The notes below the pieces were generated by a model. That model saw only the letters and a list, made by a program, of their open reading frames with translations. It did not search any database and had not been told where the DNA came from. The position numbers and the translations under genes are program-made. A stretch of DNA of 64,000 nt from Candidatus Aminicenantes bacterium (lineage in GTDB: Bacteria > Acidobacteriota > Aminicenantia > UBA2199), in NCBI GenBank assembly GCA_030639305.1, contig DAOWCY010000010.1, positions 2,773 through 66,772 of the forward strand, read 5' to 3'. Below, piece by piece: positions 11,351 to 55,559 of the stretch. The number at the start of each line of letters is the position of its first letter. The first letter of the stretch is position 1.

Positions 11351-11453
11351 TATTAAATCCTCCTCGCGATTTTTTCGCTTTCAAACCCCGGGTACCGCGA
11401 CGTATCGTTATTATTATACTTAGTTTACCCATTATCTGGTCTCCTGTTATTTC

Positions 11454-38520: not shown

Positions 38521-41500
38521 ATGACAGAACATTACGATAATATTAAGCCAAAACCGGTTATTTTCCTGGCTTTTGCCAATGACCCACGCAGCTATTTAAG
38601 AAAACTTCCTGATGAGCTGCGGAGCATCAGGGATACATTGAAAAAATCCGCGGGCAAAATCTCCTTTGATGTGGTAGAAAGGGCTAATGCCACTATCGAC
38701 GATATACTGGATGTGTTCCAGGAAAAAAAATACCGCGACCGGGTTGCCGTATTTTACTATGGGGGACACGCTGAAAAGAGGTCGCTTTTACTGGAAAATC
38801 TCGAAGGTTTTACATCTCCGGCATATAGAGAAGGATTCGTGCCGTTCCTGGCTCGGCAAAAAAGCCTACAATTGGTGTTCTTAAACGGCTGCAAAACAAA
38901 AGATTACGCTGCCGAACTTGTGCAGGTCGGGATACCGGCGGCTGTCGGCAGCACACATGAGATCGACGACCAGGCTGCATCTAAACTGGCTATTCGTTTC
39001 TTTAACGGGCTGGCTAACGATTTGCCATTGGAACAGTCATGGCAGGAAGCCGGGGATCATATCAAAAGCCTGGATATTACGCTGTCCCTGGATGATCACG
39101 GGCAAGAAAACAAAGAATGCTTCCCTTGGGTGATCTTCTATAAAGATGACTCGAATGCAATAAAAAAATGGAAACTAAGCGATGCGGCGAACGATCCTTT
39201 CTTTAGTTTGCCACCCCTACCCCCGGACTATCATTTACCGGATAAACCTTTTCTCTTCCTGGAACGCTTCCGCAAACAACATGCCGGAATCTTTTTCGGA
39301 CGCTCCAATTATATCCGGGAATTATATTCGTTAATAAAGGGCAAAGGTTCCCCTCCCATTATTCTACTTCATGGTCAATCAGGCGTAGGAAAATCCTCAC
39401 TGCTGGAAGCCGGGCTGCTGCCCCGGCTGGAACAGTCCCACACGACTCTATACTTACAGCGGAACCGGGAAAAAGGGTTAACGGCAGCCTTAGAAAATGC
39501 CCTGGACGAACACATTTCCTCATCTAAGGAAAACATATATCCCGAAGGTTCGCTGCTTAAAGAGAAATGGCAAGCAATCGAAACTTACCACAGTAAACCG
39601 CTGCTGGTCGTTTTAGACCAGGTAGAACAAGTTTATACCGATGTCAACGAAGAATTACCCGGTGAACTTGAAGATTTTTTGTCTGCGTTGGAAACTCTTT
39701 TTAAAAACCCGGAGACTCTTCCTGGTGGTAAACTCATACTGGGATACAGGAAAGAATATCACCCGGAAATAGATGATCTATGCAAACTTCACGAATTGAA
39801 ATGTGCGTCCCTGTTCTTGAAACCTTTACAAAAGTCGGAAATCGAAGAGGTAATTGCCGGTCTAACCCTGACGCAGCGTCTGGTGGATAAATACCGTCTC
39901 AGCGTAGAAGCCCGCTTACCTGCCAGGATCGCAGATTACCTGTCGACGCAGCAAGGCAACCCCATAGCTCCGACCCTGCAAATCACCATGACCAAAATGT
40001 GGCAAGAGGCTAAAAAAAACGGTCGTTCCGCCTGCGAATTTACTGTAGAGCATTTCGAAAACCTGCGCAGAAATGGTCTATTGATGGAAGATTTCTTTAA
40101 ACAGCAGATGGCCCGGCTCAAAGAGCGCAAAGAAGAAGCCGTCGCCTCAGGGCTGGCATTGAGTATATTATTTTTTTTTACTACATCTTTGGGCACGGCA
40201 GCCCCCCGGGACATTTCTACGATACAACAAGCCTATGGACATCTCAACCGGGAAATAATAGAAAACCTGGTAAAACACTTAAAAGACTTATACTTACTCG
40301 CAGCTTACCGGGATAGTAAACACCAATTTATCCTGGCACACGACACCCTGGCGCCGATTGTCATTAAAGAGTATAACGAATCGGACAAACCGGGGCAACG
40401 GGCGGCCCGTGTATTGGCTGCTAAAATGGAAGACTTTAGACGGGAGGGTGACAGGATATGGTTAGATGAACCGGATTTAAAGATCGTTGAACAAGGCAAA
40501 AACGGGATGAGATTTGTAGATAGTGATGGAGAAAAACTCCTGGAAATAAGTCGTAAACAAAAGGCCCGGCAAGAGAAGTTAAAGAAGAGAATTAAAAGAA
40601 CCGGGATTTTTTTGATTTTCACGATTATCATTATCGCCATATTTGCATTATATAAAGCGATCGAAGCAAATCATGAGGCCAAAATAGCCGAAGCCAATTA
40701 CTTTACCGCCCTGGCCCGCTTAAAACTCGACAAAAACGACCCGGTCACTGCCATACGCTGCGCTGAAAAAGCCTATTACTTACACAAAACCAAAGAAAAC
40801 ATGCAAGTGCTCAGCGCTGCCGCTGCCACCACCTCGGAACGCCCCTTTTACAGCGCCGAAATGCGGCACAAACATGCCGTAAACCACGTGGAGTTTTCAC
40901 CGGATGGTAGGACAATTCTCACCGCCTCATCGGATAAAACCGCCGTACTCAGGGATATAAACGGCAAACCCATAGTCACCTTGCCGCACGACAGCGTGGT
41001 ATACTCCGCCCGCTTCTCTTCCCGGGGCAGCGAAATTCTTACCCATTCCAGGGAAAATACCGCCCGGCTGTGGGACTTGCAGGGCAATTGCCTAACATCT
41101 TTCCAACACGAAGATATCGTTTCCTCCGCCCGGTTCTCACCGGACGGACGGTGGGTTCTCACTGCTTCCGAAGATTTCACAGCCAAACTGTGGAGCTTGC
41201 GAGGAAACCCGGAAGCAGCCTTTACCGGGCATACCGACATGCTCAACAGCGCGGTGTTTTCCCCCGGCGGTAGTGAAATCCTTACCGCTTCCAGGGATAA
41301 AACAGCCAAACTCTACGACCTGGACGGTAATATGCTTACCGCTTATAGACACCGGGATAGTGTGACCACCGCACTTTTCACACCGGACGGACAGGCCGTT
41401 CTCACCGCTTCGCGGATAGATAACCTTAATCTATGGAATCTAAAAGGTGAAATAGTCACCGGTTTCCACCAACATAAAGACATGGTCAACTGTACCCGCT

Positions 41501-42885
41501 TCTCTGCCGATGGTAGACAATTGTTCACCGCTTATCACGGCGGCGCCGTTGTACTCTGGAATACTGGCGGCGCTCTTATTACGACATTCGACAAACATAA
41601 GGCCCCGGTCTATGCCGCGGTTTTCTCCCCCGGCGGTAAAAAAATCCTCACAGCTTCCGAAGACAACAGTGCCAAACTGTGGGACATGAAAGGCAATGTT
41701 TTAGCGGATCTAAACAAACATAAAAAAGCCGTTACCCATGCCGCCTTTTCTCCCGGCGGCAGTAAAATACTTACCGCGTCCCGGGACAACACCGCCAAAT
41801 TATGGGATTTGCACGACCAGCCTGCAAAAGAGCTCAACTTTCGCAGAATAGGCGTATCCACCGCGCTCTTCTCTCCCAAAGGCAGCCGCGTTCTTATCGT
41901 TTCCGATGATAAAGTCCTTCATTTATCCGATTTGCACGGCAATATTACCGCCACTATTAGCGGTCATAAAAAGATCATTAATACCGCCGCATTTTCGCCG
42001 GACGGCGCCAAAATACTCACCGCCTCAGCCGATAAAACCGCCAAACTGTGGAACATTAACGGGGATCACTTAAAGGACTTTAGCAAACATACGGCCAATG
42101 TAAATTCAGCGGCCTTCTCGCCTGACGGAACCAAAATACTCACCGCCTCTTTCGACGGCACGGCTAAGTTGTGGGATTTGCAGGGCAGCCTTTTAGTCAA
42201 TCTCGATCAACATACTGCTGCCGTGACATCGGCACTGTTCTCTCCCGGTGGCGATAAGATACTTACCGCCTCCTACGATAAAACCGCCAAACTGTGGGAC
42301 CTAAACGGTAAACTTTTATTAAATCTCAGGCCGCATAGTTTTCCCGTGACTTACGCGGAATTCTCATCCGGCGGTGCAAAAGTGCTTACTGTTTCCGTTA
42401 TTGTCAGGTTGTGGGATATAGAGAGCCACCGCATGATAGAGTTAGAACGGCCTACCGGCCCGGAGCATAAAACAGGCGTGCAAGACCGCAGTATTAACGC
42501 GGCGCATTTTTCGCCGGACGGCCAAAAAATAGTTACTGCTTCCAATGATAATACAGTACAGTTATGGAGCCTGGAAGGCGATCTTTTGGTCCAATTCGAC
42601 GCTCATAAAACGATTATCTATTCCGCTGTTTTTTCGCCCGGCGGCAGACGGCTGCTCACCGCTTCCGCCGATAAAACCGTTAAATTGTGGGATTTGCAAG
42701 GCAATATGCTGGCGGATTTCGACCAACATGAAGGAGTTATACGTTCGGCGGTATTTTCCCCGGACGGCCGCCGGGTGCTCAGCGCCGCCGCGGACAGCAC
42801 TGTAAAACTCTGGCTCACGCCGGAAGCTATTATCGAGTGGTTAAAAACAGCAAAAATCCCCCCGCTGCCCCGGGGGAAAATATAA
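38521..42885 (+). CDS. CHAT-nSTAND1 NTPase-TM-WD40 repeat protein
   Basis: CHAT YYGGHA/FLNGCKT; FFGR; Walker A GQSGVGKSS; Walker B VVLDQVEQ; TM GIFLIFTIIIIAIFALY; about 14 WD40 repeats (AVFSPGG.KILTAS.D.TAKLWDL). Confidence 0.92.
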   Translation: MTEHYDNIKPKPVIFLAFANDPRSYLRKLPDELRSIRDTLKKSAGKISFDVVERANATIDDILDVFQEKKYRDRVAVFYYGGHAEKRSLLLENLEGFTSPAYREGFVPFLARQKSLQLVFLNGCKTKDYAAELVQVGIPAAVGSTHEIDDQAASKLAIRFFNGLANDLPLEQSWQEAGDHIKSLDITLSLDDHGQENKECFPWVIFYKDDSNAIKKWKLSDAANDPFFSLPPLPPDYHLPDKPFLFLERFRKQHAGIFFGRSNYIRELYSLIKGKGSPPIILLHGQSGVGKSSLLEAGLLPRLEQSHTTLYLQRNREKGLTAALENALDEHISSSKENIYPEGSLLKEKWQAIETYHSKPLLVVLDQVEQVYTDVNEELPGELEDFLSALETLFKNPETLPGGKLILGYRKEYHPEIDDLCKLHELKCASLFLKPLQKSEIEEVIAGLTLTQRLVDKYRLSVEARLPARIADYLSTQQGNPIAPTLQITMTKMWQEAKKNGRSACEFTVEHFENLRRNGLLMEDFFKQQMARLKERKEEAVASGLALSILFFFTTSLGTAAPRDISTIQQAYGHLNREIIENLVKHLKDLYLLAAYRDSKHQFILAHDTLAPIVIKEYNESDKPGQRAARVLAAKMEDFRREGDRIWLDEPDLKIVEQGKNGMRFVDSDGEKLLEISRKQKARQEKLKKRIKRTGIFLIFTIIIIAIFALYKAIEANHEAKIAEANYFTALARLKLDKNDPVTAIRCAEKAYYLHKTKENMQVLSAAAATTSERPFYSAEMRHKHAVNHVEFSPDGRTILTASSDKTAVLRDINGKPIVTLPHDSVVYSARFSSRGSEILTHSRENTARLWDLQGNCLTSFQHEDIVSSARFSPDGRWVLTASEDFTAKLWSLRGNPEAAFTGHTDMLNSAVFSPGGSEILTASRDKTAKLYDLDGNMLTAYRHRDSVTTALFTPDGQAVLTASRIDNLNLWNLKGEIVTGFHQHKDMVNCTRFSADGRQLFTAYHGGAVVLWNTGGALITTFDKHKAPVYAAVFSPGGKKILTASEDNSAKLWDMKGNVLADLNKHKKAVTHAAFSPGGSKILTASRDNTAKLWDLHDQPAKELNFRRIGVSTALFSPKGSRVLIVSDDKVLHLSDLHGNITATISGHKKIINTAAFSPDGAKILTASADKTAKLWNINGDHLKDFSKHTANVNSAAFSPDGTKILTASFDGTAKLWDLQGSLLVNLDQHTAAVTSALFSPGGDKILTASYDKTAKLWDLNGKLLLNLRPHSFPVTYAEFSSGGAKVLTVSVIVRLWDIESHRMIELERPTGPEHKTGVQDRSINAAHFSPDGQKIVTASNDNTVQLWSLEGDLLVQFDAHKTIIYSAVFSPGGRRLLTASADKTVKLWDLQGNMLADFDQHEGVIRSAVFSPDGRRVLSAAADSTVKLWLTPEAIIEWLKTAKIPPLPRGKI

Positions 42886-42895
42886 GGAGACAAAC

Positions 42896-44404
42896 ATGAA
42901 ACAAAGAAAACAAACAAAATCCTATTTCGCCGGATTATGTATCGCCGGGATAATCATCCTGCTTTTGTCCGCTGCGGGTTATGGAAAACCCGTTAAAAAA
43001 AAGCATATCGAAGTGGCCGGACAACTATTGGAACACCTCAACCGGCAGTTGCCCGGCGCCAATATTAAAACAAACTTAAAAAAATGCACCGTGGAACCTG
43101 TAGGCAAAAACCGGTACCGGGTTATTTTTCGAGACTCTTTTTTCAGCACCGACCTGGCCTGGATCGCGAAAGCAATTAATAAAAGTTCCACTTTTAAAAT
43201 GGATGCCACTTCTAATTTAGATACCGCCCGGATCGACGAGATGGAAATCATCTACGGGCCCGGCCAGCAATATGTACGCCCATTATGCCTGAAAGGGATG
43301 AAGATCAATCGCGATATACCCGCTCACCTGCAAAGAATAGAAAAAGGCGATTCCGCGGCATTTAACGGTTTTAAGGTGACAGGTTATTTTGCCTCAGTAG
43401 AAAAATTAACCTTCAATGATAAGGAGAATATAGAGAAATCCGGTATTTGGAATTATCCCCATGTTATTTCCAATCTTTTAAATCCTATGTTCGATCCTTC
43501 CGGGTCGAATATGAAGGATTTGAAATTAGGACTGACCGGGATTACCAGGGACAAAGACGCCATATCTTTTACCCTGGAGATCGCGGGATTCAGCAGTGTC
43601 AAGGCGGGACTGGAAGACCCGGCTGTCGGGCATTATATGTTTAGTCCGGGCGCTCCCCCTCCCGATCTATCCAAAACGCTGGCAAAGGGAATGGCTGTTA
43701 CCGATATAAAAATCAATATAGGGAAAATAAAAGCTTCCTTAGAGAAAAACGGCTGCCCATGGGGCAGCGGCGTTATAGAAAATGCATTTTACTCACTTTT
43801 TATAAAACCCGATGAAACCGGGAAATCATTCAAAATAGGTTATAGTTTCGGCCTGAATAATGTACAAATATCGTTCCCCGGCAATAAAAATATCGAAGTA
43901 TTAGGAGATTTGAAAGAGTCCCTGTTTTTATTTTCTATCGAGCGAATACCCCCCAGGGCTATTATGGCTTTTATCGATATGGTTAAGATAGCGATCAAGG
44001 CCAGGGATGCCACCGATAATTCAGTTTCCCGGCAGATCGGTTTCCAGGCCATGAGATTTGTTTTGGAAGCAGCCAACTCAAAACCCGTGGCGAAATTTTC
44101 GCTTTCGCCGGTCAAGCACTATTTCGGGGAATTATCGGCACGAGCAGACATCCGGTTAAACGGTTTATTGGGACAGCCTGATGTAAAAATACTGCTTAAC
44201 CTATGCAGCGCGGCTGAGGTTTTAAAAAAGATGACGGAATCGCGGGTGTTTTCTCCTGCGACATTGACGGGAATTGCCGCTGCTATTAATATGTATATGG
44301 TCAAAAAAGAGAACGGTGACGCGGCGATGACCATCGAGATGAAATCCGGCCAACCGGGAAAAATGTTTTTGAACGGTATTCTTATGCCCATCCCGGGCAG
44401 GTAG
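42896..44404 (+). CDS. Exported protein of unknown function
   Basis: N-terminal signal/TM, long beta-rich body, AGGAG RBS. No motif recognised with confidence. Confidence 0.7.
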   Translation: MKQRKQTKSYFAGLCIAGIIILLLSAAGYGKPVKKKHIEVAGQLLEHLNRQLPGANIKTNLKKCTVEPVGKNRYRVIFRDSFFSTDLAWIAKAINKSSTFKMDATSNLDTARIDEMEIIYGPGQQYVRPLCLKGMKINRDIPAHLQRIEKGDSAAFNGFKVTGYFASVEKLTFNDKENIEKSGIWNYPHVISNLLNPMFDPSGSNMKDLKLGLTGITRDKDAISFTLEIAGFSSVKAGLEDPAVGHYMFSPGAPPPDLSKTLAKGMAVTDIKINIGKIKASLEKNGCPWGSGVIENAFYSLFIKPDETGKSFKIGYSFGLNNVQISFPGNKNIEVLGDLKESLFLFSIERIPPRAIMAFIDMVKIAIKARDATDNSVSRQIGFQAMRFVLEAANSKPVAKFSLSPVKHYFGELSARADIRLNGLLGQPDVKILLNLCSAAEVLKKMTESRVFSPATLTGIAAAINMYMVKKENGDAAMTIEMKSGQPGKMFLNGILMPIPGR

Positions 44405-44810
44405 ACTGTCCGGCGTACTGTCAAAGAAGCTCCCGGGTTTGGCTGCAGTGCTGTCCGATTCAAGTTTCCCGGTATTTCGGAGCGATTAATTCCAGTTTTA
44501 AATAAGGGATCATAAGAATGTTGCACTGCCGATGACAAAAATTTCAGGTAAAGTTTTAGGGGACAGGCAAGCCCCCCCCCCACTGCTTTTTTAGTGTGTG
44601 CAAACATCGATTTAGAGAAAATGAATTCTTTAATTGGGTGTAAAAAATTCTTAATCAGGATAATCGAATTCCTCAAATAGAGCGATAAGTTTCTTTAAGA
44701 GTGGATTAAATTTTTTCTAATAGAAAAGATAACCGCTTTTTATAATAATTCGGTCTCTTTAAATAGAGTAATTTTTTGCGTTTTCGGTATGTTTGTTCGC
44801 TCTTTATTGG

Positions 44811-44848
44811 TTGACAACACCGGGCAGGACGTGGTAAAATAACCTTAA
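44811..44848 (+). promoter_or_regulatory. Sigma70 promoter giving a probable leaderless XRE transcript
   Basis: TTGACA (44811)-18 nt-TAAAAT (44835) with TG extension; ATG 7 nt downstream and no RBS. Confidence 0.65.
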
Positions 44849-45315
44849 TGAGATATAAACGAAGATATAGACAAAGACGAAAACCTTTAGATACAAAGCC
44901 GGTTGCCGCCCGGCTGCGCCAGGTGCGCAGGCATTTCGGTTACAGCCAGGATGAAATGGCCGCTGTATTGGGAATCACCAAAGACACCTACGGCAAAAAC
45001 GAAAGAGGCTACCACCTGCCCTCAACCGAGAGTCTCGCCGCCATATACGACAAATTAGGCATCAATATAGAATGGCTGCTTTTTAACCGGGACGCCATGT
45101 CCTGGAAAGAACCCGGGAACCGGCAGGGTGTACATGAAGATATTCCGGGGGAACTTCCTTTTTTTGCGGAAGCGACAGAGATGGTGGATTTGATGAAACG
45201 TATTCCTTTTTTGCGTCATGCGGTTTTGGGTTTTTTCCAGAGATTCAAAATCGAAAACGAGCGCCTGATCCGCCGCTTTTTAGAAAAGGAAGCAGAAACC
45301 GGCGCTACCGGCTGA
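44848..45315 (+). CDS. XRE-family HTH transcriptional regulator
   Basis: RLRQVRRHFGYSQDEMAAVLGITKDTYGKNERGYHLPS...LGINIEWLL. Confidence 0.92.
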   Translation: MRYKRRYRQRRKPLDTKPVAARLRQVRRHFGYSQDEMAAVLGITKDTYGKNERGYHLPSTESLAAIYDKLGINIEWLLFNRDAMSWKEPGNRQGVHEDIPGELPFFAEATEMVDLMKRIPFLRHAVLGFFQRFKIENERLIRRFLEKEAETGATG

Positions 45316-45326
45316 GGGGATAAGGA
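45216..45326 (+). repeat. Direct repeat, left copy (3' end of the XRE gene plus downstream RBS)
   Basis: Ungapped 111-bp match to 51538..51648, about 11 mismatches by eye. Confidence 0.9.
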
Positions 45327-45334
45327 GGAAAAAC

Positions 45335-48300
45335 ATGAGCGACATTAATCAACCGGCGATTAACATCGGCAGCGGCAGCACAGGAAATATTATTGTTGGC
45401 CGTGATTTGAACTTGAATCAAACCGGTAAACAGGAAGAAAGCAGCGCCCATATGGACAGCGGAAAGGATTCGGCAAAAAAAATCCTTATCCTGTCCGCCA
45501 ATCCCCAAAGTACAGCCCGGCTGCGCCTGGATGAAGAAGTGCGAGAAATAGAAGAAGGATTGCAGCGTTCCAAACACCGCGACCGTTTCGAAATCCGGTC
45601 GAAATGGGCGGTGCGTCTTCGAGATGTGCGCCGGACACTGCTGGATTATGAACCGCATATCGTGCATTTTACCGGGCACGGCGAAGAAGACGGCCTGATA
45701 GTAGAAGACGAAATGGGCTTTCCTGTAACTATGTCAAAAAAAGCGATTACCGGGTTGTTTAAGCTCTTTGCGAGACATGTGCAGTGTGTTTTATTGAGCG
45801 CCTGCTATTCGGAATCGCAAGCCGCCGGCATCGGTAAACATATCGATTATGTCATCGGCATGAAAAAAGAGATCAAAGATAAAGCCGCCATTGAGTTTGC
45901 CGTCGGTTTTTACGATGCCTTAGGAGCCGGAAGAACCGTGGAAGATGCTTTCGGATTTGGGTGTAACGCTATCCTGACTGTTTATCCCGACCTACCTGAA
46001 TATTCAATACCTGTACTGAAAATACGAAATGGAGTGCAAAAAGGGTCAGGCAAACAGTTATCTGATAATGTACTTGAAAAAAGTAAGCTGCCGATAAATG
46101 CAGAAATTGAAAATCAAAAGAAAAAAATATACTTTAAAAAGCTAAAAAAAACGGCATACAGCAAGGTAACCGATGGATTAAGTAATGAAGACGGGTATTT
46201 CTTTAAAAAGTATATGACCAGTGTCTATCAAACCCGCCGCGAGGCCGAAACCGAGTTTTCAAATTTTTTGAAACAAATCGATAAACGTTGTTTTATTATC
46301 ACCGGAAGAGCCGGTAAAGGTAAAACCAGTTTGCTCTGTCATTTGTCCGAACAAATCATCCTTAACGAAACGAAGAGCACGTCGATATTGCTCAACAGCC
46401 CGGAATTAAACTTACAGGGAACAAACCTTAAAGAATACATTGCTACATTTTTTAATACGGAAGATATAAATCCCACTTTTGAAGAAATCGGGCAATGTCT
46501 ATCGGCTGAGGATGCGAAATTGATTGTCATCATAGACGCTATTAATGAATTGGAAGGAGAAATGGTTTTCTCTCTATTTAACGAACAAATAACGGAACTC
46601 TTCAATATTATTGATGAAAAAAAATACCCGGTCTTATTTTGCATTAGCTGCCGCTCTGAATTTTGGACTCAATTTAGCGGTGAGCAATGGGTAAAAGACA
46701 ATATTTTCGAACCTATGCCCGGTATCGAGACCCCCACCCATGAATTACAAGACTTCGAAGAAAATAAAATCGATGACATCATAAACGCTTATTTCCATTG
46801 GTATGCGATAGAAGGAAAAGTTATCGGTGAAGCGCGGGTGAAGTGCTGCGATCCCATCATGCTGCGCTACTTGTGCGAAGCATATACCAATCGAAAAAGT
46901 AATGATAAAGAAACATCCCCGGAAGAGACAAAAACCGTTAACATCGGTGTAAAAAAAATACTCCAACGAAAAGAGGTATTCAGGTTATTTGCAAAGAATA
47001 TCAGGGAGCGGATGTTCGATAGGGTCAAGAAAGAATTAGGGTTGAAAAATAAAGATACTTTGTTCAAACTTACCACCTATTACCTGATAAATATAGCAAA
47101 GTTTATGATGGAAAACGGACGTTCACATTTAACCGGTGATGAGGTATACGAAATTGCTCAAAAGATCGAACATCGGGATGGCGACCTGGGAAGAGATGAA
47201 TTCAAAGAAAAAGATAAACGCTCCGTTTTTTTCATGTTTATCGACGAAGGTATAATTCTTGACAAGCGCGGTACTCTTGACAAGCGTGGTATTCCCGGCA
47301 AGTGCGGTAACGTGACCTACGATTTTGTTTTTGAATCCTATTTTGAATATTCCCTGGGCAGGTATTTTGCACTTAATAAATGGCCGGGTCTGCAAGGAGA
47401 CAACGGCGGCTCCAAGCAAGGTGTCGATCCGGTAGAAATAAAAAAAGATTTTAGAAAACAATTGAACCTCCACAACAAATTGATAAAAGAGAAGAATTTC
47501 ACCAATCTCTTGGGCGCTTTGGAATACGCAATCCTGGTTATAGAAACCAATGAAGACTACAAAGGCTATAAACATTATCCCGAACTGTTTATTGAGCTTT
47601 TCGAGATAATGATGGAGACTGAACAGTTTATATTCAGGCAAAAAGCCTTTGCAACACTTCGTGAAACACAATTATTAATGGGATACGATGTTGATGATAA
47701 AGATAATAAACTCCAACGGGTTTTCAATATTTTTTATAAGTTAACGAAAAAAGTCGATTTCGTTATTTCCTGGGACCTGGAACACACCATTGCCCAATTA
47801 TCGAAATATGAAGCTGATTTTGCCATCCGTCGAATGGTAGTCTGGGCTGAGGAAGGTGAAAAAGTACAACCGATGTTTGCTGCCCAGATCCTGGCGCGTA
47901 TCAGCGTTGCCAATCCACAAAAAGTCATCGAGGTTTTATTGAAGCTTGCCACTTTAGAAAAATACCGGGAAAATTTCTGGTTGGCCCGCTCATTGATCTT
48001 TGCGGCTAAAGAACTGGGAATGAATGCAAAGAAAACCGGGCTTGAAAGTAAATATATTAAAAAGTTGAGAGATATGCTGCGAAGTTTATATGAAGATACG
48101 AAGGTCCCGGTTTTTACAAAAGGGTTGGCGTTATCCGTACTTCCTTTTTTGAGCGACAAAGACCTCCTTTTACTGGAAAAAATCGGGGATTATGTGAAGC
48201 AAGAGACGAATACCTGGGCTGTCTGGAATTTGGCATATGAGCTGCGGGAATGGGTTAAACCGTTTGACGGTCCATATCATAATTCCGCATGGATTTGGGA

Positions 48301-49660
48301 AATACTCGGCCAAATCGTTGATTTAAATAATCCACATGTAAATTATGCCGTTTATAATACGGCAAAGGCGTTGGAACAGGAAAATTTTGATAAAGCCGAC
48401 GAAATACTGGAAAGAGTGGACGCCAACGATTGGCTTCCCGGAAAATTTAACGGCGAGTACGATAAAACAAAAAATGAATTAACCGGGATTGTCTATTCGC
48501 CGGTATATTTGGAGCCTTCCTATAATAACCATATCGAGTGCCGGGAGCGGTTGGAGGGCATTTTGGAAAAACTTATCGCTGTGGGAGAGAATCATTTCAA
48601 CTGGGTCGCCCCTGTTAAAGCCGAAGATAGGCGTCTGCACCCCGTGCATAATGATAAAAACGACAGGCACAGCGATGGCAGTCAATGGCGCGGTTACCTG
48701 GATGAAGTTGAAAAAGCCAGCCAAATTTTTGCCGGTAGATCGAATACCGTCAATATTCCTGTGGGGCCCAGCGAATTGCGGTACGAATCTTATGACGTGG
48801 CATTGGTATCATGCGGGGGAGTTATAAGTGCCGTCGATTATGTGATGAAAAATCCCGCCAGGTCTGCATGGTCCATGGGACGGCCCCCCGGGCACCTGGC
48901 AAATAATAATATCTGTATCTTCAACAATATTGCCGTAGGCGCTTACCATGCAAAGAAAAAATACGGAAAGAAACGAATCCTTATTGTCGATTGCGATGCC
49001 CATCACGGTAAACATACCTATCGGGTATTTCGCGGCGATCCTGGAGTGATATATTTTTCAATTCATATCGATGGAGACTATGCGAAGGAGGAAGGTAAGG
49101 TGACCGATATGGGAACAGGCGAAGGCGAAGGTTATAACTTCAACATTCCTTACCCTCCCAATATGGGGGATGACGGCTATAAAGAAATCGTCGATAAACT
49201 GCTAATCCCCGCGGCGGAAGAATTCAGACCTGAACTGGTGATGATCTCAGCCGGTTTTGACGGGCATTTCGAGGACGATTTAACGCCGGGATTAATATTA
49301 TCTGAACATGCCTATATCCATTTAGCCAAAAGACTTAGGGACCTGGCCAAGAAGCTTGACATCAAAATCGTCGGCGCTCTCGAAGGCGGCTATGGGCTGC
49401 AGTCGTTGGCCAATAGTTTTGTGCACATGATCAGTTTGATCGGGGAGTGGGACGCACCACCCGGAGAAATAGGATTTGTCCCGGGGAAAGAAAAATATAA
49501 AGACAACGCGAATGCGTTAAAGATTGTTCGCACGCAAATAAAAAAGAGAGTGGTGCTTATGAAGGAAACCAGGGAAAAAAATCCCGGTTACACTTTATTT
49601 TCCAATACAGGCCATTGGAATGAAATCCTTAGTGCGCCTGGCGAAAAAGACGGTGAATAA
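45335..49660 (+). CDS. CHAT protease - STAND (NACHT-like) NTPase - helical repeats - histone deacetylase-fold fusion
   Basis: CHAT HFTGHG/LLSACYS; Walker A GRAGKGKT, Walker B VIIDAINE, ISCR; HDAC motifs RPPGHLA, CIFNNIA, VDCDAHHG, GEGEGYNFNIP, SAGFDGH, LEGGY. Confidence 0.9.
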   Translation: MSDINQPAINIGSGSTGNIIVGRDLNLNQTGKQEESSAHMDSGKDSAKKILILSANPQSTARLRLDEEVREIEEGLQRSKHRDRFEIRSKWAVRLRDVRRTLLDYEPHIVHFTGHGEEDGLIVEDEMGFPVTMSKKAITGLFKLFARHVQCVLLSACYSESQAAGIGKHIDYVIGMKKEIKDKAAIEFAVGFYDALGAGRTVEDAFGFGCNAILTVYPDLPEYSIPVLKIRNGVQKGSGKQLSDNVLEKSKLPINAEIENQKKKIYFKKLKKTAYSKVTDGLSNEDGYFFKKYMTSVYQTRREAETEFSNFLKQIDKRCFIITGRAGKGKTSLLCHLSEQIILNETKSTSILLNSPELNLQGTNLKEYIATFFNTEDINPTFEEIGQCLSAEDAKLIVIIDAINELEGEMVFSLFNEQITELFNIIDEKKYPVLFCISCRSEFWTQFSGEQWVKDNIFEPMPGIETPTHELQDFEENKIDDIINAYFHWYAIEGKVIGEARVKCCDPIMLRYLCEAYTNRKSNDKETSPEETKTVNIGVKKILQRKEVFRLFAKNIRERMFDRVKKELGLKNKDTLFKLTTYYLINIAKFMMENGRSHLTGDEVYEIAQKIEHRDGDLGRDEFKEKDKRSVFFMFIDEGIILDKRGTLDKRGIPGKCGNVTYDFVFESYFEYSLGRYFALNKWPGLQGDNGGSKQGVDPVEIKKDFRKQLNLHNKLIKEKNFTNLLGALEYAILVIETNEDYKGYKHYPELFIELFEIMMETEQFIFRQKAFATLRETQLLMGYDVDDKDNKLQRVFNIFYKLTKKVDFVISWDLEHTIAQLSKYEADFAIRRMVVWAEEGEKVQPMFAAQILARISVANPQKVIEVLLKLATLEKYRENFWLARSLIFAAKELGMNAKKTGLESKYIKKLRDMLRSLYEDTKVPVFTKGLALSVLPFLSDKDLLLLEKIGDYVKQETNTWAVWNLAYELREWVKPFDGPYHNSAWIWEILGQIVDLNNPHVNYAVYNTAKALEQENFDKADEILERVDANDWLPGKFNGEYDKTKNELTGIVYSPVYLEPSYNNHIECRERLEGILEKLIAVGENHFNWVAPVKAEDRRLHPVHNDKNDRHSDGSQWRGYLDEVEKASQIFAGRSNTVNIPVGPSELRYESYDVALVSCGGVISAVDYVMKNPARSAWSMGRPPGHLANNNICIFNNIAVGAYHAKKKYGKKRILIVDCDAHHGKHTYRVFRGDPGVIYFSIHIDGDYAKEEGKVTDMGTGEGEGYNFNIPYPPNMGDDGYKEIVDKLLIPAAEEFRPELVMISAGFDGHFEDDLTPGLILSEHAYIHLAKRLRDLAKKLDIKIVGALEGGYGLQSLANSFVHMISLIGEWDAPPGEIGFVPGKEKYKDNANALKIVRTQIKKRVVLMKETREKNPGYTLFSNTGHWNEILSAPGEKDGE

Positions 49661-49688
49661 ATTATGATAAGAATACGGAGGGCATACC

Positions 49689-50516
49689 ATGAAAAATTTT
49701 AGTTTTGGTTTTGAGAAACTGAAGCCTGTTATATATAGCTGGTTATTTATTTTCATTATAGCAGTATCGGCAAACTCGGGACAGGATTTAGATAACGGTA
49801 AAGCAGGGCGGCGCAGCGATATTATTTTCCAGAATTCCACCATTAATGCATTGCTTGAAGGTCTTTACGATGATGATGTCACCTTCGAGCAATTGCGCAA
49901 GCATGGCAACCTTGGAATAGGGACGTTCAACAGGTTGGACGGGGAAATGGTGGCCATCGACGGTGAGTTTTATAAAATCAAAGCCGCCGACGGACTGGCG
50001 TACCCGGTGCCGGGAAATGAGAAAACACCGTTTTCCGTTGTTGCCGATTTCAGCGCCGATTCATCGGCAATATTGGAAAAATCGTTGAACCTGGAAGAAC
50101 TCCTTAAGCATATAGACACTCTGCTCCCATCCGGGAATATCTTTTATGCTTTCCGGGTAGAAGGTAAGTTCAGCTATGTCAAGACAAGAAGCGTGCTCCC
50201 CCAGGAGAAGCCTTATCCGCGTTTGGTGGAAGTTGTAAAGACCCAATCGGTTTTTGAATTTAAGGATGTAGAGGGGTATTTAGTAGGATTCTGGTTTCCA
50301 TTCTATATGAAGGATATCAATGTCCCCGGCTATCACTTCCATTTCCTATCGAAAGACAAAAAGAAGGGAGGGCATTTGTTGGGATGCCGGACTTCAAAAA
50401 TAAGAATCGAAATTGATTATATATCGGGATTCCGGCTGCTTTTACCCGAAAGCAAGGATTTTAGGATGATGCATTTAGAAAGTAAGAAATCCGAATTAGA
50501 CGCAGTCGAGAAATAG
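49689..50516 (+). CDS. budA: Alpha-acetolactate decarboxylase with N-terminal signal-like extension
   Basis: FQNSTINALLEGLYD, GNLGIGTFNRLDGEM, VKTRSV, PGYHFHFLS...GGH, C-terminal AVEK. Confidence 0.92.
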   Translation: MKNFSFGFEKLKPVIYSWLFIFIIAVSANSGQDLDNGKAGRRSDIIFQNSTINALLEGLYDDDVTFEQLRKHGNLGIGTFNRLDGEMVAIDGEFYKIKAADGLAYPVPGNEKTPFSVVADFSADSSAILEKSLNLEELLKHIDTLLPSGNIFYAFRVEGKFSYVKTRSVLPQEKPYPRLVEVVKTQSVFEFKDVEGYLVGFWFPFYMKDINVPGYHFHFLSKDKKKGGHLLGCRTSKIRIEIDYISGFRLLLPESKDFRMMHLESKKSELDAVEK

Positions 50517-50548
50517 CCCGGGATGTCAATGCATGGATTTTAGGAGAT

Positions 50549-51292
50549 ATGATGAGAACTAAAGACAACATGATATTTCAATATTCCACCATCAATGCCC
50601 TGGTGGCGGGAATTTACGATGGCAATTTGACCATCGGGGAGTTGAGTAAATATGGGAATCTGGGATTGGGTACGTTTAATCACCTGGATGGGGAGATGGT
50701 TGTACTTGATGGAGAGTTCTATAAAGTTAAAGCTGCGAATGATCCTACCGTCGTGCGCGTATCTCCCGATGAAAAAATATCTTTCGCCAGCGTGACAAAT
50801 TTCAAACCCGGTGGAGCTTCTATTCTCCTTAATGAACCATTCACATTAGAGGGACTTCAAAAACGTCTTGATAAAGAATTAGCTTCAGTAAATATTTTTT
50901 ACGCTTTCAGGATGAAAGGGATTTTTAAATCCGTAAAAACCAGGTGCGTCCCAATACAGGAGAGACCATACTCAAGACTTACAACGGTTGTCGAGCATCA
51001 ATCCCGGTATGAATTTAAAGATATTGAGGGATACCTTGTGGGCTTTTGGTTCCCGGATTACATGAAAGACATAAATGTCCCCGGATATCACTTTCATTTT
51101 CTGTCGGCAGACAAAACCAGGGGGGGACATCTTTTCGAATGCCGGACCGCGAGGTTGGAAATTGATGCTGCCCGTATTTTGGGATTCCGGATGATTTTAC
51201 CAGGCAGCAAAGAATTCAAAAAAACAAATTTGACCGTTAACGAAGAGGAACTGGAAATCATCGAAAAAGGAAAAAAAAATACTTATAGCTAA
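50549..51292 (+). CDS. budA: Alpha-acetolactate decarboxylase (second copy, no signal peptide)
   Basis: FQYSTINALVAGIYDG, GLGTFNHLDGEM, VKTRCV, PGYHFHFLS...GGH, IIEK. Confidence 0.92.
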   Translation: MMRTKDNMIFQYSTINALVAGIYDGNLTIGELSKYGNLGLGTFNHLDGEMVVLDGEFYKVKAANDPTVVRVSPDEKISFASVTNFKPGGASILLNEPFTLEGLQKRLDKELASVNIFYAFRMKGIFKSVKTRCVPIQERPYSRLTTVVEHQSRYEFKDIEGYLVGFWFPDYMKDINVPGYHFHFLSADKTRGGHLFECRTARLEIDAARILGFRMILPGSKEFKKTNLTVNEEELEIIEKGKKNTYS

Positions 51293-51537
51293 CAGATACA
51301 ATTGGAGCAATAAAGTTAAATAATACAAATAAAAATTATGGAATTTTCAAAAGTGTTATAAAAGAAACTCAGGTTGGAATTTATCTCCTGATGTTGTGGA
51401 GGAAATCGAACAATTATCGAGGGATCGCTTTGGAATTCTCCCCCTTTATTATACATTTGCCTTGGATACTATAATATTTGCTCCCACCATCAAGACGATT
51501 ATCCTGAACCCGGAAGTGTGAAAAATATTCTATTTAC

Positions 51538-51648
51538 TCACGTGGTTTTGGGTTATTACCAGGGATTCAAAATCGAAAATGAGCACCTGATTCACCGCTT
51601 TTTAGAAAAGGAAGCAGAAACCGACGCTACCGGCTGAGGGGGTAAGGA
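51538..51648 (+). repeat. Direct repeat, right copy (orphan XRE 3'-end fragment)
   Basis: Encodes HVVLGYYQGFKIENEHLIHRFLEKEAETDATG*, versus HAVLGFFQRFKIENERLIRRFLEKEAETGATG* in the intact XRE gene. Confidence 0.9.
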
Positions 51649-52708: not shown

Positions 52709-54439
52709 ATGAAAGAAAAAAAAGGCAGTCTCAATGCCGTTATCGTGGGCGTAGACGGCTATAAAGACGCACCGCCACTCCAATGCGCCGTCAACGATGC
52801 CGTCTATCTAACCGAAACGCTGCAAAAAGTATGGCAAAACCGGGGTACTCATATCAAAACCCTGGTCTGGCCTTCCTTGAACCAGGAAAAAACCAGGGCA
52901 CAGCGGGTGACATGGGGCATCGATTTACCCCCAAACGCCTGCCCGGTTACCCGGGAAGGCCTGCTGTCGGCAGTGCGCGAAAGCGCGGGTAAAACCGGGG
53001 AAACGGACACTTTTATTTTCTTTTTTGCCGGTCATGGTGAACTGGTGGATGCGGAACCGGCCCTAATCACGGTGGCCGAAGGCGAAACAGCGGAAGGAAT
53101 CGAAAAAATCAAAATAAAAGAGATACAACAGGCTGCCGCCGGCTGCCCGGCCCGGAACAAAATAATGATATTGGATTGCTGCCAAACGTCGCCCGGTAGA
53201 AAAAAAAGCAAACAAGAAGAAAAATACAAAAACCTGGGAGAATTAACAAAAGGCTGGTCGATATTTCTCTCCTCCAGTCCCGGAGAAAGCTCATTAGAAG
53301 ACCGGTATTTTGGGAACAGCAGTGACGATTACCTACAGCAGGGTATATTCACTGCCAGTTTGGCGGTGGGGCTGCGCGGTGAAGCAGCGGGCGGCAGCAG
53401 GTACATCAGCCTGGCTGATCTGGCATATTATGTGGGAAAACGGGTTCCCATAGAATACCAGGAACGGCTGGAGGCAATAATGCTTAGAGAGGCCGGAACA
53501 GGTAAAGCCCCCCCGGGGCAACCTGAAACCAGGGGAACAGGTTCATTATCGCAAAGCCCGGTACTATTGAGCGAAGCCGTGGCCATGAACGGCCCATACA
53601 AAATAACGATGGCCCCGGAAATCATACCCGCTTGCCAGGACTCACGAACAAAAACACCCGGCAAAAATTTTATAAAAAACTGGTTCAAATTCCTGTGGGG
53701 ACAGTGGCCTATCGTATTTCCTTTTAAAACGGTATTTCGTTTGGCATCCCTGCTGTACGCCGCGGCCATGACGCTAACCGTAATCTGGCATTCCCCGGCG
53801 GAAACAAACGATACCTTAGTGATATTTTATGGTGCGGTGGGCCTGGGCAGCGTACTGATCTGGTGGCTTACGCTCCCCTTCGCAGCCGCGGCAAATGAAG
53901 AGCGCTGGCATTCCGGGGGGTATGTAACTCTTCTTTTCTATTTACTCTGGCATTGTCTTGTGGCCCTGGTTTTTGCCTGGCTGTGCGGCGTTGTACCCAT
54001 CACTAACCGGGAATCCAACCGGTTTATTTTCTTAGTAACGGATCTTTTTTTCATATTGGCAGGAATAGTTATTTTCGCCATCAACACCAGTCAAACTATT
54101 ATTTCCCTGGCGGAAACCGTCAGGCCGGATGAGAGAAGAGAAATTCGGCAGGCTATCCGGGTTTTCGAACAGTTTAAAAGCAAAATGGTAGGAGTGGATT
54201 TGTATAACTATGTGGCGGCGGTTTCAGTTAGGCCGAACCTATATATATATGGTTGGATTGTTTCGGCAGCCGTCATCGGGTTCAATATTTATCAAGTGCT
54301 TGCCACGGTGGATATCGTAACAGTATACTTGTGGACATTTTTAGTGCGCAATATTTTCCTTTTGGTGCTGGTAACCTGGTTGGTTTTCTGGTATCATGCC
54401 GCATTTAAGACTATCCAAAAGGAGGTCTATAAACGATAG
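52709..54439 (+). CDS. Caspase-family (peptidase C14) protein with C-terminal multi-pass membrane domain
   Basis: AVIVGVDGY...LQCAVNDA, FFFAGHG (His), ILDCCQ (Cys), GIFTASL; about 6 hydrophobic helices at the C-terminus. Confidence 0.9.
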   Translation: MKEKKGSLNAVIVGVDGYKDAPPLQCAVNDAVYLTETLQKVWQNRGTHIKTLVWPSLNQEKTRAQRVTWGIDLPPNACPVTREGLLSAVRESAGKTGETDTFIFFFAGHGELVDAEPALITVAEGETAEGIEKIKIKEIQQAAAGCPARNKIMILDCCQTSPGRKKSKQEEKYKNLGELTKGWSIFLSSSPGESSLEDRYFGNSSDDYLQQGIFTASLAVGLRGEAAGGSRYISLADLAYYVGKRVPIEYQERLEAIMLREAGTGKAPPGQPETRGTGSLSQSPVLLSEAVAMNGPYKITMAPEIIPACQDSRTKTPGKNFIKNWFKFLWGQWPIVFPFKTVFRLASLLYAAAMTLTVIWHSPAETNDTLVIFYGAVGLGSVLIWWLTLPFAAAANEERWHSGGYVTLLFYLLWHCLVALVFAWLCGVVPITNRESNRFIFLVTDLFFILAGIVIFAINTSQTIISLAETVRPDERREIRQAIRVFEQFKSKMVGVDLYNYVAAVSVRPNLYIYGWIVSAAVIGFNIYQVLATVDIVTVYLWTFLVRNIFLLVLVTWLVFWYHAAFKTIQKEVYKR

Positions 54440-54467: not shown

Positions 54468-55559
54468 ATGACACAGCGAAGAATTTCACCACACGAATTA
54501 GAAGTCGAAGAATTGGATAAAGAACTAATCAGGCGAGGGGCGCAAGTTGCCGGAGAAAAGCGTTTTATGTTCAGCGACAAGGAAGGCACCCCGCAGCGGG
54601 ACGCGGTAGTGAGCGGTGCCGGAAAAATATACGAACACACTCCCCCACCCAATGAAGCGTTGGCCTATATCAGCACCTGGGATCTGGCCAGGATTATTAA
54701 AATTAAGACCTCTACCCATTCCCTAACCTGCGTCCGCGGTTCCGGGTATGCGGACCTGATGGATTGGTACGAGATCGGCCCCGGTCCGGGTGACGGTTGG
54801 GAAAAGATAAAGCAAAACGCCGGCTGCACGGCTGCCGTCTGCTTCCGGGACCAATTGATAGATACCGGGCAGGGGGCTTTTATCCTGAATGTCAAAAATT
54901 ACGGCAAAACCTTTAACCTGTGCCAGATCGAACCTTTCCGCCATCAACCTATCGCAGCGGGGAAAATGTGCAGCGGTTTCCTGGTCGAAGACGATGTGAT
55001 CGCCACCGCAGGTCACGTTATTAACGAAAACAATGTGACAGACTTGCGTTTTATTTTCGGTTTTGCCATGATGGATTCGGTCACGCCGGTGACGAAGTTC
55101 CCCCGGGCCGATATGTACCGGGGCGTCAAAATTATCCACCGCCTACCCGGCCCGGGCAAAGCCGGTGAAGAAGACATGGTGCTGGTGCGGTTAGACTGCA
55201 AAGTGGCAGGCAGAGCGGCGGCTGAACTTTCTAAGCAAGAGATTTCTAAAGATCAAGCGGTTTATGTGACCGGTTATCCATTAGGGCTGCCGCTGAAATA
55301 TGACGGCGGAGGAACAGTGCAAACCGTGCATGGTAACCATTTTACCGCCGGCCTGAATGTGTATGGCAGCAGCCCCGGATCGCCGGTTTTCGACTGGGAC
55401 AGCCACGAAGTCACCGGCATAGTAGGAAAATCCGGGCAGATGAATTTCAGGTGGACGGGGAAAGGTTGGATGTCGGTAATTTACCCCGGCAGCCGGGGAA
55501 GCGAAAGCGGAGGAGTCTTTTGCCACGGGGTTTCCAAATTGGTCGAAATGATAGATTAA
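54468..55559 (+). CDS. Trypsin-like peptidase homolog with apparent Ser-to-Pro change at the nucleophile
   Basis: CSGFLV...ATAGHV (His), EDMVLVRLD (Asp), TGYPLGLPLK; YGSSPGSPV replaces the usual YGGNSGSPV. Confidence 0.8.
   Translation: MTQRRISPHELEVEELDKELIRRGAQVAGEKRFMFSDKEGTPQRDAVVSGAGKIYEHTPPPNEALAYISTWDLARIIKIKTSTHSLTCVRGSGYADLMDWYEIGPGPGDGWEKIKQNAGCTAAVCFRDQLIDTGQGAFILNVKNYGKTFNLCQIEPFRHQPIAAGKMCSGFLVEDDVIATAGHVINENNVTDLRFIFGFAMMDSVTPVTKFPRADMYRGVKIIHRLPGPGKAGEEDMVLVRLDCKVAGRAAAELSKQEISKDQAVYVTGYPLGLPLKYDGGGTVQTVHGNHFTAGLNVYGSSPGSPVFDWDSHEVTGIVGKSGQMNFRWTGKGWMSVIYPGSRGSESGGVFCHGVSKLVEMID

Follow-up and report, generated by a model that had tools for sequence, protein, structure and literature searches.

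Identification of an NLR-like gene with a deacetylase fold at its C terminus

A 64,000-nucleotide (nt) stretch from the metagenome-assembled genome of a Candidatus Aminicenantes bacterium (GenBank assembly GCA_030639305.1, contig DAOWCY010000010.1, positions 2,773 to 66,772; here referred to as the window) was found to carry a gene for a protein resembling the NLR receptors (nucleotide-binding receptors with leucine-rich repeats), in which a CHAT protease domain, a NACHT-type STAND NTPase, and an alpha-solenoid are followed by a domain with the histone deacetylase (HDAC) fold. The receptor gene is an intact reading frame of 4326 nt, and two genes for homologs of alpha-acetolactate decarboxylase (ALDC) lie directly downstream of it; their coordinates, with those of other features of the locus, are given in Table 1. 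The presence of an HDAC-fold C terminus on an NLR-like body is far beyond chance. Besides the Hist_deacetyl profile match, the domain matched HDAC6 with an E value of 7.5e-80. An AlphaFold2 model of residues 242 to 1441, built on a 55-row family alignment, was confident throughout (mean predicted local distance difference test score [pLDDT] of 89.2, predicted template modeling score [pTM] of 0.85). In this model the NTPase is followed by a helical and winged-helix region, approximately 22 helices of 10 to 20 residues each, and an alpha/beta domain. The last of these matches both catalytic domains of HDAC6 (CD1 and CD2) and bacterial HDAH and Kdac1 in Foldseek (E of about 1e-17, probability of 1.00), with target template modeling (TM) scores of 0.76 to 0.82 for single-domain chains, so that profile and fold agree in placing it in PF00850.

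The N-terminal domains were assigned in the same manner. The CHAT family (PF12770) was matched over residues 52 to 205 at 27.8 bits, against a curated cutoff of 24, and the closest solved relative of the domain is 8tl0 (E = 2.7e-14), whose FIGHG and NACCT motifs stand opposite FTGHG and SACYS of the receptor; the His and Cys of these motifs are presumably the catalytic residues of 8tl0. The NACHT family (PF05729) was matched over residues 319 to 488 at 28.9 bits, against a curated cutoff of 26.7. NACHT proteins are described, in the part of the source consulted, as having a Walker A motif of the form GxxxxGK[ST] and a Walker B signature of D[GAS]hDE (10.1101/2022.07.19.500537). The receptor has the former, and its DAINE carries Asn at the Asp position of the latter; G327, G329, K330, D401, N404, and E405 are each conserved in at least 90% of the family described below. 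Two Avs2 models in PADLOC match the NTPase region alone (residues 289 to 647, E = 5e-16, corresponding to model positions 315 to 628 of 1504), and the receptor is therefore not an Avs2 member, its C-terminal half being the HDAC fold. Among NCBIfam models, the only match was to antiphage_EruA and was below threshold, at 14.6 bits against a cutoff of 1000. For the solenoid, a protein atlas returned weak HEAT-like leads with scores of 0.81 to 0.90, below the usual recognition mark, which serve as leads only. The receptor has no 19-residue stretch with the hydrophobicity of a membrane span (maximum Kyte-Doolittle score of 1.35).

A first-pass annotation, made from the DNA letters alone, had read the gene as a CHAT domain with an intact His-Cys pair, a STAND NTPase with GRAGKGKT and DAINE motifs, helical repeats, and an HDAC fold, in that order. 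Pfam, PADLOC, AlphaFold2, and Foldseek bear out this order, and the alignment with 8tl0 agrees with an intact His-Cys pair. Both NTPase motifs are present, and the terms "helical repeats" and "HDAC fold" hold because of the AlphaFold2 model and its Foldseek matches.

A uniformly altered deacetylase active site

The same annotation had pointed to RPPGHLA in place of the canonical RPPGHHA, and residues H1187 and L1188 are indeed encoded by CAC CTG, at positions 48893 to 48898, where deacetylases have a catalytic His-His pair. In an alignment with zebrafish HDAC6, RPPGHLA lies opposite RPPGHHA and is followed by a deletion of four residues, with NIC opposite GFC, in line with the shortened segment that had been described; further on, DGDYA of the receptor lies opposite DG(S/A)F(W/F)P of HDAC6. 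A total of 176 retrieved proteins were scored for the motif, of which 58 contained PPGHLA, 108 contained GHH, and 10 had no readable motif. The 58 GHL proteins are exactly those with the helical and HDAC body or fragments of it, and none of them keeps GHH. All 58 also have the short loop, with a GHLA-to-Cys spacing of four residues, compared with eight residues in 139 of 149 GHH motifs. As GHL with the short loop is found in every family protein and GHH in all 108 ordinary HDAC matches with a readable motif, GHL is a trait of the family and not a lesion, as judged from these sequences.

Residues H1187, L1188, D1219, D1221, H1223, D1309, and E1350-G-G-Y1353 were invariant in both the 34-row and the 55-row family alignments. 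By motif alignment to HDAC6, D1221, H1223, and D1309 correspond to the zinc ligands and Y1353 to the tyrosine that stabilizes the transition state, and the earlier statement that the ligands (DAH and GFD) and the EGGY tyrosine are kept thus applies to the whole family. In the part of the literature consulted on KDAC8, the second His of the pair (H143) is described as the general base/acid, polarized by D183, and the first (H142) as an electrostatic catalyst, polarized by D176 (PMC8556138). In the GHL family, Leu always stands in place of H143 and the residue corresponding to D183 (K1226 in the window protein) may be K, L, M, S, Q, I, or A, whereas the H142 and D176 positions are invariant. The H143/D183 dyad has therefore been removed cleanly, with the H142/D176 dyad and the metal site kept. 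The domain therefore has the zinc ligands and tyrosine of a deacetylase but lacks the tandem His-His with an Asp/Asn partner that marks an active one. Two further histidines, H1227 and H1311, adjoin zinc ligands and are nearly invariant and family specific.

A known or predicted ALDC-fold partner at every locus examined

The loci returned by a scan of one genome each for 185,579 species (n = 13) were examined, together with the window, for neighbors of the receptor gene. Of eight neighbors of the receptor gene in the window, only the ALDC pair recurs (in 4 of 13 loci); the HTH, WD40-STAND, 502-amino-acid (aa) ORF, FGE-sulfatase, caspase, and trypsin neighbors were found in none of the 13 (by tblastn for the HTH gene). 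ALDC1 matches 4bt2 with a profile E value of 1.8e-83, and ALDC2 is 56% identical to ALDC1 by BLAST; no further ALDC copy was found in the host genome, which is 90.5% complete. The ALDC gene directly follows the receptor gene in L001, L003, and L004 and lies on the opposite strand in L002, giving five loci with a true ALDC (the window and L001 to L004). The active center of ALDC comprises three His, a Glu, an Arg, and a Thr (PMC9090609). The corresponding T79, E86, R167, H216, H218, and H229 are invariant in all six ALDC partners, with a spacing equal to, or within one residue of, that of T58, E65, R145, H194, H196, and H207 in the Brevibacillus brevis enzyme, so that on profile and active-center positions ALDC1 and ALDC2 are assigned as putative ALDCs.

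The remaining loci carry a divergent module in place of a true ALDC. Module X, of approximately 320 aa, has its own gene immediately downstream of the receptor gene in L006, L007, L009, L010, and L011 and is fused C-terminally to the HDAC domain in L008, L012, and L013, and a related module, Y, is present in L005 and, in addition to the ALDC, in L002. Neither module matched a Pfam family, yet the two are homologous to each other (hhalign probability of 94.8%, E = 5e-8), and a GE...HxH...H motif is invariant in all 10 X and Y sequences. The gap between the second and third His is approximately 43 residues in X and 23 in Y, compared with 11 in ALDC. An AlphaFold2 model of X from 10 sequences (pLDDT of 84.9, pTM of 0.87) gave ALDC structures as 12 of the top 13 Foldseek matches listed, the other being the zinc protein PTD012, with a probability of 1.00, E values from 4e-7 to 1e-5, and target TM scores of 0.43 to 0.70. 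In all 14 loci, three of which (L004, L011, and L013) are cut by contig ends, the receptor thus has an adjacent or fused ALDC-fold partner whose His triad is intact, the fold being predicted in the case of X and Y.

As a control, 80 metagenome loci (608,831 nt) matching the family in the HDAC domain only, at 32 to 41% identity, were screened; they were judged to be ordinary HDACs from the HDAC-only match and a motif scan of six-frame translations. An ALDC-fold gene was nearby in 1 of 80 control loci versus 14 of 14 family loci (Fisher P = 8.6e-16). That one locus (L095:5785-7681) encodes a stand-alone canonical GHH deacetylase of 368 aa with a twin-arginine-like leader, convergent to a lipoprotein-type ALDC, and may represent an exported pair of HDAC and ALDC enzymes, perhaps an ancestral association. 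The first-pass annotation had treated the receptor as a single gene and had missed the ALDC-fold partner, including the two genes directly downstream of it in the window. Its interpretation of the HDAC fold as a sensor with an altered site, instead of an ordinary deacetylase, is supported, but its single-gene view is not, and the presence of the partner at every locus examined changes the mechanistic picture. The acetylated ligand or small metabolite that it proposed is a candidate. Of the three findings that it had named as contradicting its reading, none was obtained: homologs do not retain GHH, the C terminus is modeled as an HDAC fold, and the junctions are bridged by contigs of other samples, as described below.

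Distribution, conservation, and effector exchange

A word-indexed search returned 39 proteins, of which 33 share the NACHT-solenoid-HDAC body at 25 to 85% identity. P0032 and P0039, which match in the CHAT/NACHT part only, and the eukaryotic HDAC6-like proteins P0036 to P0038 and P0040 were left out of the first (34-row) alignment. Further members were added by an exhaustive HMMER search with residues 651 to 1441, and the 55-row alignment contains the window protein plus the other GHL proteins (54 of 57) that remain once three short fragments are excluded. Fifty of the 58 GHL proteins are at least 1100 aa in length. Mean pairwise identity was 0.527 in the HDAC domain, 0.365 in NACHT, 0.27 to 0.38 in the helical parts, and 0.177 in the N terminus; by this measure, conservation of the receptor peaks in the HDAC domain. 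P0029, P0031, and P0033 (857 to 966 aa) contain the solenoid and HDAC domain with no NACHT region aligned, P0033 having an N-terminal EAD5; either their gene calls are truncated or they represent a variant without the NTPase.

The opposite end of the protein is exchanged among members. A NACHT match with an E value of 0.001 or less was obtained in 25 of the 34 aligned members, and their N-terminal effectors, where recognized by Pfam, were CHAT (n = 3), TIR_2 (n = 3), TIR (n = 1), EAD5 (n = 1), and EAD11 (n = 1). By the same means, the N terminus of L008 was identified as SIR2_2 and that of L012 as a PNP_UDP_1 phosphorylase-like domain, while the N-terminal 500 residues of seven further loci yielded P-loop matches only and no recognizable effector in any of the seven. 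P0032 and P0039 share the CHAT N terminus of the window protein at 59 to 61% identity and then continue into other sensor domains. Such modular exchange of effectors is characteristic of NLR-like conflict proteins.

The 13 loci are spread over Bacteroidota, Acidobacteriota, Chloroflexota, Actinomycetota, and Planctomycetota, with one on a short contig binned as Nanoarchaeia. This 4.7-kb contig (L004) carries the closest relative in the genome collection, at 64% identity over the HDAC domain and 60% for the ALDC, and its likeness to the bacterial loci makes a binning error probable. In a member of the Chloroflexia (L010:7605-11544), the receptor gene is split into three ORFs (7605 to 9482, 9494 to 9769, and 10021 to 11544) beside an intact X partner, reflecting either a decaying copy or sequencing errors. 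A maximum-likelihood tree of the HDAC domain was built from 45 rows, comprising the 14 loci, 20 other family proteins, and an outgroup of 11 hand-picked, short GHH enzymes. The GHH enzymes formed one clan (100/99), the ALDC-type loci and the window formed one supported clade (97/97), and the Y-type and X-type loci were placed on deeper branches; partner type thus follows the HDAC tree.

Genomic context and integrity of the assembly

The receptor gene lies in a dense island of conflict genes (Table 1), downstream of a gene for an XRE-type helix-turn-helix (HTH) protein. The receptor and both ALDC genes are bracketed by a direct repeat consisting of the 3' end of the HTH gene and the ribosome-binding site; the contig comparison showed the right copy of this repeat as a "goes back" joint as well. 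This bracketing, together with the relic ORF at the right copy, suggests insertion or exchange of a cassette downstream of the HTH gene. The best sigma-70-like match upstream (positions 44811 to 44840, 11 of 12 positions) is a consensus match only, and promoter and terminator scans gave results no richer than shuffled sequence.

Table 1. Features of the receptor locus, with window positions
Feature	Positions	Strand	Residues or length	Basis or remark
NLR-like receptor gene (CHAT / NACHT / alpha-solenoid / HDAC fold of GHL type)	45335-49660	+	1441 aa	ATG start; ORF and Pfam
CHAT protease domain	45473-45985	+	47-217	PADLOC chat, E = 1.1e-17; Pfam CHAT
CHAT His115	45677-45679	+	111-116	Motif HFTGHG
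CHAT Cys157	45803-45805	+	154-159	Motif LSACYS
NACHT/STAND NTPase	46289-46798	+	319-488	Pfam NACHT
Walker A	46304-46327	+	324-331	GRAGKGKT
Walker B	46535-46549	+	401-405	DAINE
All-helical alpha-solenoid (linker or sensor scaffold)	47333-48418	+	~667-1028	AlphaFold2 secondary structure
HDAC-fold domain	48530-49432	+	1066-1366	Pfam Hist_deacetyl (PF00850), E = 3.7e-58, above curated cutoff
HDAC motif RPPGHLA			1183-1189	
HDAC motif DCDAHHG			1219-1225	
HDAC motif AGFDGH			1306-1311	
HDAC motif EGGY			1350-1353	
ALDC1, ALDC homolog	49689-50516	+	275 aa	Pfam AAL_decarboxy, E = 6.5e-81
ALDC2, second ALDC homolog	50549-51292	+	247 aa	Pfam, E = 2.6e-78; no signal peptide
XRE-type HTH gene	44848-45315	+		Pfam HTH_3, E = 3.2e-10; 19 nt upstream of receptor
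Direct repeat, left copy	45216-45326	+	111 nt	Alignment; 90% identity to right copy
Direct repeat, right copy	51538-51648	+	111 nt	Inside 39-aa relic ORF (51518-51637)
CHAT protein	6761-11350	-		
CHAT protein	11454-14408	-		
Hsp70-like protein	14810-17659			
Tubulin_2 protein	25670-29875			
FGE-sulfatase + TPR	37329-38471			
nSTAND1 + WD40	38521-42885			
ORF between WD40-STAND and HTH genes	42896-44404		502 aa	No Pfam or PADLOC match
Caspase	52709-54439			Long hydrophobic C-terminal half
Trypsin-like protease	54468-55559			
CHAT + AAA_16 + TPR protein	55801-59016	-		
Hybrid two-component regulator	59401-63651	-		Reg_prop, Y_Y_Y, HisKA, HATPase_c, Response_reg, HTH_AraC

The host genome comprises 427 contigs, with 4.24% contamination. 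The hybrid two-component architecture encoded near the end of the window is typical of Bacteroidota; no match to SusD_RagB or Photo_RC was found in the host genome. Two shorter HDAC-family genes are present elsewhere in this genome (L015, G000:C384:11125-11784, and L016, G000:C27:24368-24991); they share 38% and 29% identity, respectively, with the sensor domain.

Four sequencing runs of one study contain the stretch, one of them possibly its source, and the contigs of the other three were compared with it; no RNA data set is listed as containing the stretch. They tile positions 44800 to 51400 at 99% identity or more and bridge the HTH gene, receptor start, and CHAT/NACHT region (45137 to 46636), the solenoid/HDAC junction including the GHL codons (48474 to 49482, with 0 differences), the receptor stop and ALDC1 (49384 to 50031), and the ALDC1/ALDC2 junction (49663 to 50589). 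With each of the junctions bridged in contigs of three other samples, the receptor gene is not a chimera.

Proposed function and alternative explanations

The reading favored here, with moderate confidence, is that the protein is a cytosolic STAND receptor of a conflict system, acting in defense or programmed cell death, in which a zinc-pocket sensor works with an ALDC-fold metalloprotein. The GHL pocket would still bind its ligand but would have lost the general base/acid for hydrolysis, making it a substrate trap whose ligand is a small compound of the carbonyl or acetyl type; a carbonyl compound could be bound without turnover because the zinc, the Tyr, and the electrostatic His are kept while the proton shuttle is lost. 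The ALDC-fold partner would make, remove, or present that ligand. Occupancy of the pocket would release the autoinhibition of the NACHT domain and permit NTP-dependent oligomerization, which in the window receptor would activate the His115/Cys157 protease of CHAT to cleave cellular targets, resulting in growth arrest or death. An obligatory partner implies either that the ligand is its substrate or product or that both proteins form a sensing unit, and the three independent fusions suggest that receptor and X act as one such unit. That the sensor is so highly conserved suggests that its ligand is conserved as well and is not a phage protein in rapid evolution.

Several observations weigh against this reading. 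The proposed role in defense or cell death derives from the architecture and the neighborhood, PADLOC matching the CHAT and NTPase parts alone. The survey of context covers 14 of the 58 family proteins, the other 44 lying outside it, and midpoint rooting of the HDAC tree leaves the monophyly of the GHL proteins relative to the GHH enzymes as an open polytomy. The link between X and ALDC rests on a model from 10 sequences with query TM scores of 0.41 to 0.47, and profile comparison by hhalign was not significant for X (probability of 2%) or for Y (0.6%). H1227 or H1311 could, judging from their positions, supply a replacement base. Finally, a signal- or lipoprotein-like N terminus was read by eye in five of six ALDC copies, including a hydrophobic signal-like segment without a lipobox Cys in ALDC1, and in one of two Y proteins, while ALDC2, X, and the fusions have none. 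In the loci concerned, partner and sensor may therefore occupy different compartments, which fits a diffusible ligand and not a stable complex. A complex prediction for the HDAC domain (residues 1040 to 1441, 34-row alignment) and ALDC2 (6-row alignment) scored 0.00 twice in runs that had no controls, and is evidence neither way.

A narrower form of the proposal, which we consider unlikely as stated, is a metabolite-sensing NLR that acts as an enzyme-substrate trap and holds, at its zinc and tyrosine, a carbonyl compound made or cleared by the ALDC-fold partner. The apparent export of the partner in most ALDC-type loci, with a cytosolic receptor, would then imply that the ligand is diffusible. 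Candidate ligands include acetoin or a longer acyloin (an alpha-hydroxyketone), an acid of the alpha-acetolactate type, and an acetylated metabolite. alpha-Hydroxyketones serve as zinc-binding groups in HDAC inhibitors, an analogy for which a literature search returned two unrelated papers. Such a trap could report a breach of the envelope, a metabolic change induced by infection, or a signal from a neighboring cell before the CHAT, TIR, SIR2, or PNP-like effector is released.

It was also considered whether the HDAC domain, with or without the ALDC-fold protein, is an integrated decoy or guard that mimics a host deacetylase attacked by phages, so that binding of a phage protein would trigger the NLR. 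Decoys lose catalysis and keep their fold, as in plant NLR-ID proteins, and the two HDAC paralogs in the host genome, if ordinary enzymes, could be the guarded targets. Guarding is, moreover, one of the modes given for C-terminal domains in the part consulted of 10.1101/2022.07.19.500537. However, a decoy needs to preserve only the attacked surface, and a lost catalytic position should drift, while here the strictest conservation is that of the zinc-pocket residues, the invariant Leu included. The sensor is also the slowest-evolving domain, unlike the sensors of arms-race receptors, and both the obligate partner and its export signals would be left unexplained. Since the pocket, Leu included, is the conserved part, a decoy is disfavored and appears improbable.

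Little probability is likewise given to the domain still being an enzyme. In this view its mechanism would be altered, H1187, H1227, or H1311 would serve as the base, and the domain would form a two-step pathway with the ALDC-fold enzyme, acting either as an effector at the C terminus or as a module that generates a signal under control of the NTPase. The invariance of the zinc ligands, Tyr, and first His would suit an enzyme, as would the near invariance of the family-specific H1227 and H1311, and the GHH deacetylase beside a lipoprotein-type ALDC in L095 hints at a preexisting pair of HDAC and ALDC. C-terminal effectors are sometimes found on bacterial NACHT proteins, according to the portion seen of 10.1101/2022.07.19.500537. 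Against this, both members of the general-base dyad (the H143 and D183 positions) are lost, the equivalent His-to-Ala mutant of a bacterial enzyme, Klebsiella HdaH H144A, is called "inactive" in the title of PDB entry 9gn1, and the N terminus already bears a classical swappable effector.

A very improbable alternative is a metabolic or developmental STAND regulator, a MalT-like sensor of a metabolite related to acetoin or acetolactate that steers proteolysis in housekeeping or differentiation. Some STAND NTPases, such as MalT, do sense metabolites, and the partner in the window is a bona fide ALDC homolog with all active-center positions, in a host for which no other ALDC was found. Against a regulator, CHAT is exchanged within the family for TIR, SIR2, and PNP-like domains, which defense systems usually employ to kill cells; the family is rare and patchy (13 loci in the 185,579-species collection, across at least five phyla); the gene sits in an island of conflict genes, bracketed by a 111-nt direct repeat; and a scan of 16 window ORFs revealed neither acetolactate synthase nor butanediol genes. 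An artifact, either an assembly chimera of NLR and deacetylase or a decaying pseudogene, has practically no probability and is already refuted, for although the source is a fragmented metagenome-assembled genome, the junctions are bridged in three other samples, the reading frame is intact, and the identical architecture occurs in 50 proteins of at least 1100 aa from other assemblies.

Relationship to known systems

Bacterial NLR-like receptors with identified triggers mostly recognize phage proteins through repeat-type or rapidly diversifying sensors. A slowly evolving, enzyme-derived metal pocket with an obligatory metalloprotein points instead to the sensing of a conserved small molecule or cellular state. 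If the proposal of a zinc-pocket sensor working with an ALDC-fold partner is correct, the family would represent a new type of input for prokaryotic NLR immunity, a natural case in which loss of the general base turned a deacetylase into a receptor, and an unexpected, nonmetabolic role for the ALDC fold. The cassette is compact, at 6.3 kb, and its motifs can be tested by point mutation.

A search of the literature yielded no description of the CHAT/NACHT/solenoid/HDAC architecture, and the words deacetylase, HDAC, and acetolactate are absent from the main texts of PMC7159879, PMC8195603, PMC13581612, and 10.1101/2022.07.19.500537, the supplementary tables of which may list the clade. Like the bNACHT and Avs systems, the receptor has an N-terminal, swappable effector from a repertoire of the same kind, a central STAND NTPase, and a C-terminal sensor. 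Where those systems have repeats, FGS, SNaCT, or transmembrane regions as sensors, the GHL family has an HDAC fold derived from an enzyme and preceded by a solenoid; conservation within the protein is highest in this domain, not lowest, and the ALDC-fold partner is obligatory in the 14 loci. With the class II-type deacetylases (HDAC6, HDAC10, and bacterial HDAH, APAH, and Kdac1; PF00850) the domain shares its fold, 24 to 27% identity, the Zn/K+ ligand motifs DxDxH and GFD, the first His, and the EGGY Tyr, but it differs in the His-to-Leu replacement, the variable Asp/Asn position, the 4-residue deletion, and the fusion to an NLR body.

The closest solved CHAT, SAVED-CHAT of type III CRISPR signaling (8tl0), has aligned His and Cys motifs; in that system a SAVED domain binds cyclic oligoadenylate, whereas here CHAT would be activated by a NACHT oligomer. 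ALDC1, ALDC2, and the partners in L001 to L004 are clear homologs of ALDC (4bt2, 5yho, and 6inc), and X has the ALDC fold in its model, but these partners are encoded with an NLR and not with acetolactate synthase, most have export signals as read by eye, and X and Y are too divergent for Pfam and have the wider gap between the second and third His. The nearest conceptual parallel is the cyanobacterial NACHT-GUN4 proteins, in which a non-repeat ligand-binding domain lies C-terminal to NACHT and is proposed to be a small-molecule sensor (10.1101/2022.07.19.500537). The fold and the class of ligand differ, and no partner enzyme is described for GUN4 proteins in the part of that source consulted. 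With GUN4 described in this position, the concept of a small-molecule sensor C-terminal to NACHT has a precedent.

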